Source: Escherichia coli
GTDB taxonomy: Bacteria > Pseudomonadota > Gammaproteobacteria > Enterobacterales > Enterobacteriaceae
Strand: one strand, 5' to 3'
Assembly: GCF_046105845.1 (NCBI RefSeq)
Contig: NZ_CP151004.1
Length of the DNA: 64,000 bases
The translations under genes and the position numbers were made by a program. The notes beneath the pieces are model-generated. The model saw only the letters and a list, made by a program, of their open reading frames with translations, made no database searches and had not been told where the DNA came from. Each line of letters starts with the position of its first letter. Position 1 is the stretch's first letter. Shown piece by piece: positions 28,069-32,305 of this stretch.

Positions 28069-29178
<1,110 letters not shown>

Positions 29179-29241
29179 TGGGCGGTATTCTGAAACGGCG
29201 ATTGTCGTGAGAACAGAATGGTTGCACCAGAATACAGATAT

Positions 29242-29271
29242 AAAAAAACCGACATGACAGTCGGTTTTTTT
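29242..29271. terminator. Bidirectional intrinsic terminator
   Basis: Perfect 12-bp stem aaaaaaaccgac / gtcggttttttt with 6-nt loop; a U-run follows in either reading direction. Lies after selU (+) and at the predicted 3' end of the antisense sRNA (-). Confidence 0.6.
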
Positions 29272-29329
29272 ATTTTTTCCGCCCAAAACTTGGTGGTTCC
29301 GGGCAGAAATGAAACAGTCCTCATCTAGC
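29242..29329 (-). ncRNA. Candidate antitoxin sRNA of a type I toxin-antitoxin module
   Basis: Minus-strand promoter -35 TTGAAT (29364..29359), 17-bp spacer, -10 TATAAT (29341..29336); predicted start ~29329; terminator 29242..29271. Its 5' end is the reverse complement of 29315..29330, a 16-nt direct repeat of 29503..29518 in the toxin 5' UTR, so it can pair with the toxin mRNA in trans. Confidence 0.4.
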
Positions 29330-29335
29330 AAGTGA

Positions 29336-29364
29336 ATTATAAGTCAGGATGCCTACATATTCAA
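29336..29364 (-). promoter_or_regulatory. Near-consensus sigma70 promoter for the candidate antisense sRNA
   Basis: TTGAAT-17 bp-TATAAT read on the minus strand. Confidence 0.45.
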
Positions 29365-29589
29365 ACAGCTATGTTGGCGATACAATCCCGACGCTAGTAG
29401 TGATACTGCCTCAAGGGATTACCGCAGTGCGGAAAAGTACTTTTAAGTCCTGGTCAGGATACAGGTGGTGCTGATTCTGGTGCTCTAATTTGGAGAGAGG
29501 CAGTCCTCATCTAGCACATGAAGAAAATCATAGTTACAGGCAACGTAAGGGTAAGCTGTGATTGTCTTTCTCCCTTAAGGGAGCAACGG

Positions 29590-29673
29590 ATGAAAACTTT
29601 TCTCGATAAAGTTCTCATCATTCTTAAGGCGCTAATCGCGCTGCTGGAACTGATCCGTCAGTTTATTGAATAA
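29590..29673 (+). CDS. Candidate type I toxin: 27-aa hydrophobic membrane peptide (DinQ/TisB-like)
   Basis: atg...taa encoding MKTFLDKVLIILKALIALLELIRQFIE; SD-like aggga 7-9 nt upstream; single predicted TM helix; the ALIALLELIR stretch matches my recollection of E. coli DinQ. Too short to appear in the ORF track. Confidence 0.5.
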   Translation: MKTFLDKVLIILKALIALLELIRQFIE

Positions 29674-29690
29674 CTGAGGAAACGTAGCTA

Positions 29691-29745
29691 AGGCCGAAGG
29701 TTTACCACCTTCGGCCTTTAAAAAAACCGACATGACAGTTGGTTT
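29691..29745 (+). terminator. Tandem terminator-like hairpins after the toxin ORF
   Basis: GC hairpin aggccgaagg / ccttcggcct, then a degenerate second copy of the aaaaaaaccgac-atgaca-gttgg element with a T-rich tail. Confidence 0.4.
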
Positions 29746-29776
29746 CATATTTATTGCCAAAATGCACACTGTTCAT

Positions 29777-29875
29777 GCCAGATGCGGCGTAAACGCCTTA
29801 TCCGGCCTACACAATCTTGCAAAATCAATATATTGCACGATCCTCGTAGGCCTGATAAGCGTAGCGCATCAGGCA
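29777..29875. repeat. REP/BIME palindromic elements
   Basis: gccagatgcggcgtaaacgccttatccggcctac ... cgtaggcctgataagcgtagcgcatcaggc, inverted REP pair next to the ybbP stop. Confidence 0.6.
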
Positions 29876-29890
29876 ATCTAACGCCTGTCA

Positions 29891-32305
29891 TCATCCCGCA
29901 AACTGCCTGAACAGCGCCTTACCCTTAACCAGTCGCGCACCCAGCCAGCCGCCGAAAAGCGACAGCAGCAGTGCACCGCTGCACGGCAGCACAATCCACA
30001 ATCGCCAGTCTGGCTCCCACGGAAAATCAAACACTTTCGCCTGCAACACTGCCAGCGCCGTTTCCGCACCAATTGCGGCTACCAGGCCAGAAACAAACCC
30101 AAGCATGGCGAACTCACACCACAATGTCGTGCGCAGCAGCTTTTTCCCCGCACCGAGTGTGCGCCACACCACCAGCTCCTGATGACGCTGACGCATTCCC
30201 ACCTGCACCTGTGCCAGCAACAGCAACATACCGCAGGCGGTGACCAGCACCACCATCACCTCCAGCGCCCGACTTACCTGCTCCAGCACCTGACCGACCT
30301 GTTTTAAAATCGCGCCAATGTCTAACAGGCTAATGGTAGGGAACTGGCGGTTGAGTTGCGTCAACATGCCGTTGCCATTCTCCCAGCGGAAACTGGTAAG
30401 CCAGCTCTGCGGTTGCCCGTCTAATGCCCCTTCAGGGAAAATAAAATAGAAATTAGGCCGCAGACTTTCCCAGTCCACTTTGCGCAGGCTGGTCACTTTA
30501 GCGCGGAACTCCTGGGTATCGCCCATAAAAGTCACGGTATCACCGAGGGCAACGTTTAAGCGTTTCGCCAGCCCCTCTTCCATCGACACTTCATCGGCTT
30601 TTGGCGGCCAGTTACCGGCGACAATCGGATTATGATCGGGCCGCGTATTTTGCCAGGTAAGATTAAGTTCGCGATTGAGCGCCTCATCTTCATTGCCTTC
30701 TGTCGGCTTGCCGTTAATCGCCGTCAGTCTCGCCCGCACCACCGGATAAAATGATTCCGGGACTATCTGATGTTCCGCGAGGAACGCTTTTAGCGGTGCT
30801 ACCTGTTCTGTGGCGATGTTGATTAAAAAGTAGTTCGGGCTTTCTGGCGGTAGCTGCTGCTGCCAGCGGTCAAGCAGATCGCCACGCAGCACCAGCAGCA
30901 GTGCCAACAGCATAAAGGAGAGCGAAAATGCCGAAAGCTGGCTTAACGTTGACCACGGCTGACGTAACAGGCGGCTAACCGCCAGGCGCAGAGGTAGCGA
31001 TTTCAGCGTCATGCGGCGAAGTACATTCAGCAGCATCCAGCCCAGCACACCGCACAGCAAAGCCAGTACTACCGCGCCCGCCAGCACCGCCCAGAGCAGC
31101 ATACTGCCGCCCATTAATCCGGCGAGCAGCAGCACAACCACCACACTGACAATCGGCAGATAAAACTTGAGCGGCCAGACGTTCGCGACCACATCATTAC
31201 GCAATACGCGTAAAGGCTGCGTTGCCAGCAACAAGCGGTACGGTCGTAGCCCCACCAGCAGCGAGATGACCGTCATGGTGCCCAGCGCCCACAACCACGG
31301 CCAGAGGCTGGCTGGCGGTAGTGCAGCAGGCAGAACGGGCTTGAGCAGCACCATCAACACGTTTTCGAACAACAGGCCTATCGCCCCGCCGGTAACGGCT
31401 GAAAGCGTCAGCACCATCAACCACTGACCGACGATTAGCTTACGCAGTTGCGCTCGCCCTGCCCCCAGCGTTTTGAGGATCGCCACAAGATCGTAGCGAC
31501 TGCGACAGTAATGATTCATCGCCACCGCCACCGCTGCCACTGCCAGCAGCAAGGTCAGAAGCGCCGAAAGCAGCAGGAACTGTTGCGAGCGTTCCATCGA
31601 GCGCCCCAGCGCGCCTTCGTCCTGTTCCAGACCGTACCAGCGTTGTTCGGGTTTAAGCTGGGGTAACAACCATTTCTCATAGCCGTCGAGCTGGTTCTCG
31701 TTGCCGCCGAATTTATAGCGCCAGGTGACCCGACTTCCCGGCTGCACGGCTCCGGTTTTATCGACATCCGCCAGATTCATCATCAGACGCGGAGCCATCT
31801 GGAAGGGGTTAAAACCGGAATCCGGTTCCTGAATCACTTCTCCGGCAATCCGCAAGGTGGCATCACCCACGTCGATGGTGTCGCCTGTTTTCAGGTTAAG
31901 CAGTGCCATCAGGCGTGGGGCCAGCAATACGCTGCCCGCCTGCGGTTTCAGGCCAGGGGGATTAGTTTGCAGATCGCCATACATCGGGTAGATATCATCC
32001 ACCGCTTTGACGTTCGCCAGCTGCGGTGTGTCGCCTGCAAATGTCATGGTGGCGAAAGTCAGCTGCTTGCCGACTTTCAGGCCGCGCTTTTGCGCTTCCT
32101 CCAGCCACGCTTGCGGCACTTCGCGCGAACTGCGCAACGCCCGATCGCCCGCCATAAACTCCCGGCTTTGCTGGCTTAAGCCCTTCTCCATGCGATCGCT
32201 GATATTGCCCAGCGCCAGCACGCAGGCCACCGCCAGGCTTAGCGCCAGCCAGACAATTAATAGCGACGGCGAGCGCCATTCGCGCCAGAACCAACGTGCA
32301 ATCAT
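29891..32305 (-). CDS. ybbP: FtsX-like ABC transporter permease
   Basis: 804-aa multi-TM ORF, overlaps ybbA stop by 4 bp. Confidence 0.93.
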   Translation of the reverse strand: MIARWFWREWRSPSLLIVWLALSLAVACVLALGNISDRMEKGLSQQSREFMAGDRALRSSREVPQAWLEEAQKRGLKVGKQLTFATMTFAGDTPQLANVKAVDDIYPMYGDLQTNPPGLKPQAGSVLLAPRLMALLNLKTGDTIDVGDATLRIAGEVIQEPDSGFNPFQMAPRLMMNLADVDKTGAVQPGSRVTWRYKFGGNENQLDGYEKWLLPQLKPEQRWYGLEQDEGALGRSMERSQQFLLLSALLTLLLAVAAVAVAMNHYCRSRYDLVAILKTLGAGRAQLRKLIVGQWLMVLTLSAVTGGAIGLLFENVLMVLLKPVLPAALPPASLWPWLWALGTMTVISLLVGLRPYRLLLATQPLRVLRNDVVANVWPLKFYLPIVSVVVVLLLAGLMGGSMLLWAVLAGAVVLALLCGVLGWMLLNVLRRMTLKSLPLRLAVSRLLRQPWSTLSQLSAFSLSFMLLALLLVLRGDLLDRWQQQLPPESPNYFLINIATEQVAPLKAFLAEHQIVPESFYPVVRARLTAINGKPTEGNEDEALNRELNLTWQNTRPDHNPIVAGNWPPKADEVSMEEGLAKRLNVALGDTVTFMGDTQEFRAKVTSLRKVDWESLRPNFYFIFPEGALDGQPQSWLTSFRWENGNGMLTQLNRQFPTISLLDIGAILKQVGQVLEQVSRALEVMVVLVTACGMLLLLAQVQVGMRQRHQELVVWRTLGAGKKLLRTTLWCEFAMLGFVSGLVAAIGAETALAVLQAKVFDFPWEPDWRLWIVLPCSGALLLSLFGGWLGARLVKGKALFRQFAG

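Follow-up and report, generated by a model that had tools for sequence, protein, structure and literature searches.

What does it mean that a short hairpin occurs twice, as a direct repeat, around a candidate toxin-antitoxin module? In a stretch of 64,000 nucleotides from an Escherichia coli genome (RefSeq contig NZ_CP151004.1; the whole stretch is referred to below as the window), such an element lies at 29242-29271 (copy 1) and again at 29720-29745 (copy 2), between the genes selU and ybbP. A preliminary description of the locus had reported a perfect copy at the first position and a degenerate one at the second, and both are exactly there; it had further proposed that the two copies bracket the module, either as its two terminators or as footprints of its insertion or duplication. 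The best explanation we can offer is that the segment 29193-29762 is a chromosomal type I toxin-antitoxin module of the DinQ/AgrB family, with a 27-amino-acid putative membrane toxin encoded on the plus strand and a predicted antitoxin small RNA (sRNA) of about 89 nt on the minus strand. Copy 1 would be the terminator of this sRNA, and copy 2 a vestigial partial duplicate of it. We put the probability of this explanation as a whole at about 0.72.

Copy 1 has the core AAAAAAACCGAC-ATGACA-GTCGGTTTTTTT (29242-29271), that is, A7-CCGAC-ATGACA-GTCGG-T7; with the flanking A and T residues included, it forms a perfect 14-bp stem with a 6-nt loop (29240-29273). Copy 2 has the core AAAAAAACCGACATGACAGTTGGTTT (29720-29745), which carries one C>T change in the 3′ arm (GTTGG) and has lost the T-run. 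With up to three mismatches allowed, the window holds two matches to the element, compared with 0.00 expected from 100 dinucleotide-preserving shuffles. A repeat search delimits the direct repeat as 40 nt at 83% identity (29241-29280 versus 29719-29758), with a spacing of 478 bp. When the flanks of the two copies are compared, those on the left are unrelated; on the right a weak similarity continues for about 17 nt, to 29762, and the stretch next to copy 1 that takes part in it is the beginning of the sRNA body.

The sRNA gene runs from 29328 to 29240 on the minus strand and comprises a 5′ antisense segment, an internal stem-loop and a terminator. It matches the Rfam family AgrB (RF02891) over the full length of the model (positions 1-84 of 84) with 51.4 bits, above the gathering score of 40 (E = 2.2e-07), and the predicted fold (-38.7 kcal/mol, z = -7.2) leaves the 5′ segment single-stranded ahead of the internal stem-loop and the terminator. 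The arrangement is that of the AgrB family: the sRNA is encoded 5′ of the toxin gene, divergently and without overlap, in the same layout as in E. coli K-12 and in plasmid loci; its 5′ segment is complementary to the 5′ untranslated region (UTR) of the toxin mRNA upstream of the Shine-Dalgarno (SD) site; and consensus matches provide it with a candidate promoter and Rho-independent terminator of its own. The promoter, found by a promoter scan, is sigma-70-like (29364..29336, minus strand; TTGAAT-17-TATAAT, 10 of 12 positions) and predicts a transcription start at about 29328-29330, close to where the Rfam match has its 5′ end.

The antisense segment (29315..29336, minus strand) is one copy of a 22-nt direct repeat, CAGTCCTCATCTAGCA. 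The second copy (29501..29522, plus strand) lies in the toxin 5′ UTR, where the repeat search and duplex prediction identify it as the putative target of the sRNA. The sRNA 5′ end is perfectly complementary to this target over 16 nt and then continues into extended imperfect pairing; for the first 40 nt of the sRNA the predicted duplex with the mRNA has an energy of -55.5 kcal/mol, compared with a mean of -25.4 (standard deviation 3.2) for shuffled sequences. The 5′ end of the sRNA would thus base-pair with the repeated sequence in the toxin 5′ UTR, and both its role as the antitoxin and the repression of the toxin are predicted from family membership and complementarity. RefSeq has no annotated feature in the region of copy 1 and the sRNA.

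The Rfam AgrB alignment places the terminator stem of the sRNA on copy 1 (29240..29273, minus strand). A terminator scan matches it on both strands, and on both it has the make-up of an intrinsic terminator, a G+C-containing stem followed by a U-run; its fold is predicted at -16.4 kcal/mol for the plus strand and -17.5 kcal/mol for the minus strand, with z about -7. Because the stem is palindromic and its A7/T7 flanks are symmetrical, copy 1 is terminator-like in the direction of selU as well, and it could also end selU transcription on the plus strand. In being palindromic, flanked by A7/T7 and placed between selU (+) and the sRNA gene (-), it resembles the bidirectional terminators found between convergent genes. 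Unlike an ordinary terminator of this kind, however, it belongs by descent to the sRNA gene: strains that lack the module have no terminator hairpin after selU, and the stem, in the general form A7-CC(C)GAC...G(T/C)CGG-T6-7, also ends agrA and agrB of K-12 and the agr-like sRNAs of plasmids and Salmonella. It is present in slightly varied forms in four plasmid loci and was read directly in two Salmonella mobile-element loci. The copy 1 stem is a conserved part of the sRNA gene, and we have very little doubt that it is the terminator of an AgrB-family sRNA and that the module is of the DinQ/AgrB type. A toxin-antitoxin module does lie between the two hairpins, as had been noted, but copy 1 belongs to it rather than flanking it: this hairpin forms the 3′ end of the antitoxin sRNA gene.

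The toxin open reading frame (ORF; 29590-29673, plus strand) encodes 27 amino acids, MKTFLDKVLIILKALIALLELIRQFIE, and scores 37.2 bits against the NCBIfam equivalog model for DinQ (NF041472, toxin_DinQ; cutoff 30). Against the DqlB model (NF041473) it reaches 23.2 bits, below the cutoff of 35. A Pfam-A scan of the toxin matched no family; PF28061 is listed in the precomputed Pfam field of its protein-search matches. In near-identical genomes RefSeq annotates the gene as dinQ. The start assigned by the NCBI Prokaryotic Genome Annotation Pipeline (PGAP) varies by genome, giving either 29518-29673 (156 nt, 51 codons) or 29590-29673 (84 nt, 27 codons), and only the short, 27-codon form goes with both the match to the DinQ peptide model and an SD sequence. 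The latter, AAGGGAG (29577-29583, plus strand), lies within an inverted repeat with arms at 29567-29576 and 29577-29586.

Downstream of the ORF is a hairpin at 29690-29718 (plus strand), AAGGCCGAAGGT-TTACC-ACCTTCGGCCTT, identified as the toxin mRNA terminator by the inverted repeat, its fold and alignment to K-12 and plasmid dql loci; it occupies the same position as the terminator of K-12 dinQ and is homologous to it. With this conserved terminator in place, copy 2 was ruled out as the terminator of the toxin gene. The earlier suggestion that the two copies are the two terminators of the module thus holds for copy 1, which serves the antitoxin sRNA on the minus strand, and fails for copy 2.

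In dinQ proper, 'damage-inducible' refers to SOS regulation through a LexA operator in the toxin promoter, and from the sequence such regulation does not appear to extend to this locus. A search of the interval between sRNA and toxin (29329-29520) gave no convincing LexA operator: the best site matches 6 of 8 core positions and 11 of 20 overall and overlaps the sRNA promoter, whereas K-12 dinQ scores 7 of 8 and 15 of 20. With no LexA box in evidence, it is doubtful that 'damage-inducible' suits this toxin, and the RefSeq product name dinQ may overstate what is known of this paralogue.

The reference for the family is the dinQ-agrA/agrB type I toxin-antitoxin locus between arsR and gor of E. 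coli K-12 (Weel-Sneve et al. 2013, PMC3567139; Kristiansen et al. 2016, PMC5066626), for which an 'agrAB repeat' has been described (PMC3567139), a counterpart of the 22-nt antisense/target repeat here. The module aligns end to end with dinQ-agrA of that locus, from downstream of the agrA terminator through the sRNA, the 5′ UTR and the toxin ORF to the terminator. Because of this alignment, the Rfam and NCBIfam scores above threshold and the antisense/target repeat, we assign the module to the known type I family. Like K-12 dinQ-agr it has a divergent AgrB-family sRNA with the same A7-CCGAC...GTCGG-T hairpin and a 5′ end antisense to a repeat in the toxin 5′ UTR, an SD-sequestering hairpin, a 27-amino-acid toxin whose core is ALIALLELIR, and a toxin terminator in which the U tract is short. 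In K-12, too, the hairpin occurs twice as a direct repeat, agrA and agrB being tandem duplicates. Here, unlike in K-12, there is only one full sRNA gene, and the second hairpin lies downstream of the toxin with neither a promoter nor an sRNA body; where K-12 has the loop TTTGC, this locus has ATGACA; and the module, without a convincing LexA box, sits between selU and ybbP instead of arsR and gor. In K-12 the position between selU and ybbP is filled by the rhsD region.

The second point of comparison is dqlA and dqlB, the dql (dinQ-like) genes carried on chromosomes and plasmids of Enterobacteriaceae (PMC5066626; T1TAdb, PMC8594479); 14 dql genes have been described (PMC5066626). The module shares with these the standing of a dinQ homologue of a second class, found alongside dinQ itself in some strains. 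Also in common are the conserved 5′ UTR, the sigma-70 promoter and the Rho-independent terminator, together with an agr-like sRNA upstream, a type of RNA that Rfam AgrB also detects in plasmid dql loci. The toxin C-terminus LELIRQFI(E/D) is common to this locus, to DqlB and to the Salmonella relatives. Unlike dql, the peptide scores as DinQ and not as DqlB in NCBIfam, and the plasmid and Salmonella loci are without a hairpin after the toxin.

The closest toxin relatives outside Escherichia are found on five contigs of Salmonella enterica (70-73% identity) and are located on mobile elements. Their contexts are either a phage-type integrase with SprT-like and ParA-like genes or a conjugation cluster typical of integrative and conjugative elements (ICEs), with TraG-D_C and DtrJ-like genes. 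In the two Salmonella loci that were read, an agr-like sRNA terminator lies upstream of the toxin and no hairpin follows it.

This leaves copy 2. The region 29719..29762 begins one base past the toxin terminator, and we read it as a partial, lineage-specific copy of the sRNA gene's 3′ end, which would comprise the terminator and about 17 nt beyond it. A duplicated core of 27 nt (29719-29745) is certain; there are suggestive signs that the duplicate reaches the module's right edge, at about 29762. Beyond the weakly similar 17 nt to the right of copy 2 come repetitive extragenic palindromic (REP) elements, and there is neither an Rfam AgrB match nor an sRNA body to the right, by which copy 2 was ruled out as the terminator of a second full sRNA gene. 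A copy of the agr terminator after the toxin was also sought, and not found, at the dinQ/dql loci of K-12, four plasmids, and Salmonella ICE and plasmid sequences; among the dinQ/dql loci compared, copy 2 is known only in the selU-ybbP module. Its fold is weak (-8.5 kcal/mol, compared with -16.4 for copy 1), with a G.U pair in the stem on plus-strand RNA and an A.C mismatch on minus-strand RNA. On the plus strand it is marginal as an intrinsic terminator, having an 8-bp stem that includes the G.U pair and an interrupted U-run, and on the minus strand it does not have the make-up of one because of the A.C mismatch.

The rate at which copy 2 changes was read from a divergent lineage, represented by metagenome contigs with the module at the same site and flanking genes about 95-96% identical. 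Copy 2 differs there at 8 of 44 positions, compared with 16 of 526 elsewhere in the module (Fisher p = 2e-4), and its divergence is indistinguishable from that of flanking DNA (11 of 76, p = 0.6). The same lineage shows a single difference in the 34 nt of hairpin 1, and identities of 98-99% for the toxin 5′ UTR and 100% for the toxin terminator. The A-run of copy 2 is eroding in the divergent lineage, and erosion of the A-run and T-run spans both lineages. Because copy 2 diverges as much as the unconstrained flank, we regard it as an unconstrained vestige, and its lack of function is probable, with a good deal less assurance than attaches to the identity of copy 1. It was most likely left over from a neighbouring tandem copy of the module or of the agr gene and would now be drifting neutrally. 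A tandem duplication is the most plausible origin because the family is prone to it, as the tandem agrA and agrB of K-12 illustrate, and of the footprints that had been envisaged, duplication is the best reading for copy 2.

A functional copy 2 is the alternative that fares best, although we consider it unlikely. It could be a back-up plus-strand terminator for the toxin mRNA, a role that is conceivable because the toxin's own terminator precedes only three U, or an insulator separating the toxin gene from ybbP, which converges on it. The terminator scan does list copy 2 as terminator-like on the plus strand, with 8 pairs and the tail CATATTTATT, and its hairpin folds directly past the toxin terminator. 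It is also invariant or nearly so in the sampled E. coli carriers of the module, an observation that carries no information, since identity within the species is about 99% across the whole module. Against a function stand its divergence, which keeps pace with the neutrally changing flank and is about six times faster than in the rest of the module, and the erosion of the A-run and T-run in both lineages. Moreover, all other dinQ/dql loci compared manage without copy 2, with a similar short-U-tract toxin terminator.

Several points weigh against the explanation of copy 2 as a drifting partial duplicate. Its stem has changed twice independently, by C>T in E. coli (3′ arm) and by A>G in the divergent lineage (5′ arm), and both changes retain pairing on the plus strand as G.U while giving A.C on the minus strand, as would be expected of a plus-strand hairpin under constraint; for two of two substitutions, the chance probability of this outcome is about 0.25. 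The similarity of the copies past the 27-nt core is at the level of suggestive (p about 0.025; 126 of 5000 shuffles equal the observed local score). No tandem array of the module was found in 5426 complete E. coli genomes, in 100,044 species genomes or in metagenomes: hairpin spacings across these collections are 478 bp or belong to shorter deletion variants, with a maximum of two hairpins per genome. A tandem duplication is thus the most likely origin of copy 2 by comparison rather than by observation, and termination in vivo at either hairpin is likewise something we infer from sequence.

The distribution of the module and of its hairpins bears on the remaining alternatives. The full-length module is present in 1319 of the 5426 complete E. 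coli genomes. An alignment of the selU-ybbP junction across strains, which the preliminary description had proposed as a way to define insertion boundaries, gives an indel of 570 bp (29193-29762) that holds the whole module and both hairpins, with 48 nt to their left and 17 nt to their right; in the empty sites of E. coli E50, LF82 and N68 all of this is missing. Further copies of the element, for which a genome-wide search had likewise been proposed, are not dispersed. A 38-nt hairpin query (E<=10) matched 2647 places in 1330 of the 5426 genomes, two per genome at most and all of them at this locus, and gave no match on plasmids. An exact 20-mer scan of the 100,044 genomes, one per species, returned three loci, with about one chance match expected: the full module in Escherichia sp. 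E1V33, a solo hairpin in the divergent E. coli SCPM-O-B-8794, and an unrelated match. This 20-mer, AACCGACATGACAGTCGGTT, occurs beside a tRNA gene in a metagenome-assembled genome of an uncultured AT-rich Enterobacterales (contig L013, 3535-3554), and also in two near-identical environmental contigs (L026 and L031) that have a different hairpin, GCTAAACCGAC…GTCGGTTTAGC. We rejected all three as related loci; their AT-rich contexts are unrelated and the matches are probably due to chance or convergence.

Thirteen genomes have a single match to the hairpin query. One of these, PapRG-06-5, carries the full module with a loop variant, and the solo hairpin is confirmed among the complete E. coli genomes in LR-28 only. 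In LR-28 the left flank of copy 1 is followed by the GTTGG variant and the right flank of copy 2, with flanks identical to those of the window, which is the structure expected from recombination between the two copies. The single hairpin of SCPM-O-B-8794 likewise joins the left flank of copy 1 to the right flank of copy 2. As these rare alleles show, the two copies recombine, deleting the 478 bp between them and leaving a solo hairpin, and this is the only demonstrated consequence of copy 2. One may speculate further, and we regard it as improbable, that the plus-strand hairpin of copy 2 is under selection for termination of the toxin mRNA or as a shield from ybbP, or that the repeat pair is a recombination-prone excision device that sheds the module and leaves a solo terminator.

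Less probable still is that the copies are insertion footprints, left when a mobile or circular toxin-antitoxin cassette entered a pre-existing terminator hairpin between selU and ybbP by target-site duplication or a Campbell-type event, in which case the solo-hairpin alleles would be ancestral. The geometry of direct repeats around a 478-bp unit would suit such an event, solo alleles do exist in LR-28 and SCPM-O-B-8794, and the closest toxin relatives are found on integrative/conjugative elements and plasmids of Salmonella. The unoccupied site, however, is without any hairpin; the indel takes both copies and DNA on either side of them; and the segment contains no recombinase or transposase. 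Because the empty sites lack both copies, the repeat is not a target-site duplication, and the insertion part of the earlier proposal has to be given up. Nor do the solo alleles look like virgin targets, because some 10 nt on the left side of hairpin 1 (CAG-R-Y-R-T before the A-run) are similar to what follows the agr terminators downstream at loci unrelated to this one; hairpin and adjoining sequence are common to these terminators, which makes the solo alleles module-derived remnants. LR-28, which has the variant arm of copy 2 within flanks identical to those of full-module strains, is as expected for a recent deletion.

A last alternative would make the hairpin a dispersed repeat of the REP kind that has nothing to do with the module. 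The preliminary description had named this as the outcome that would refute its reading, and the adjoining genuine REP elements might bring it to mind. It is refuted by the copy number: at most two copies per genome, in module-bearing genomes only and never on plasmids, and no more than the two copies in the window.

Besides the 478-bp deletion, several shorter or disrupted forms of the module occur. A 186-bp deletion exactly between the antisense and target repeats CAGTCCTCATCTAGCA (29337-29522) was found in E. coli O157:H16 Res13-Lact-PEA12-26; the sRNA and toxin promoters are both lost with it, yet dinQ is still annotated by PGAP, and the same shortened span is seen in several genomes (H98, H105 and H108). 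A 108-bp deletion between the short repeats AGTyCTCATC (29502-29609) takes away the target in the toxin 5′ UTR, the SD sequence and the start codon and brings the hairpin spacing to 370 bp. It is present in EC31 and on contigs L033 and L035, and is recurrent in several genomes and metagenome contigs. In a human gut metagenome contig, a 71-bp deletion (about 29652-29722) removes the toxin C-terminus and terminator, fusing the toxin ORF (…CTGGAACTGA) to hairpin copy 2 with a hairpin spacing of 407 bp. Finally, in E. coli O127:H6 E2348/69 (contig L008, 1397-2443) the gene of an IS481-family transposase lies between the sRNA and toxin genes at about position 29364, at or beside the -35 box of the sRNA promoter; both hairpins are kept.

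The surroundings of the module are as follows. Upstream, with hairpin 1 next to it, is selU/mnmH (28084..29178, plus strand), encoding tRNA 2-selenouridine synthase, as assigned from the ORF list and RefSeq annotation of near-identical genomes. The 570-bp segment itself holds no ORFs other than the toxin and short spurious ones. Outside it, between the module and ybbP, an inverted repeat and Rfam matches mark REP and bacterial interspersed mosaic elements (29770..29880). Among these matches, ES036 (CssrF) at 29811-29853 scores just above its gathering score (40.3 versus 37.6) and naRNA4 at 29807-29771 is below threshold. The number of REP units depends on the strain: GTEN_24 has extra units and the divergent lineage has none. 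The convergent downstream neighbour is ybbP (29891..32305, minus strand).

This kind of system is known already, and this very locus is annotated dinQ in RefSeq; what we add is the position of an antitoxin sRNA that RefSeq leaves unannotated here, at 29328->29240. The feature is an ordinary one, and it matters little beyond annotation. The internal direct repeats of the module, that is, the hairpin pair and the antisense/target pair, are nevertheless substrates for recurrent precise deletions. Together with the insertion sequence in E2348/69, the deletions of 478 bp, 186 bp, 108 bp and 71 bp make up a natural series of decay alleles, which could serve the study of how chromosomal type I toxin-antitoxin modules are lost.

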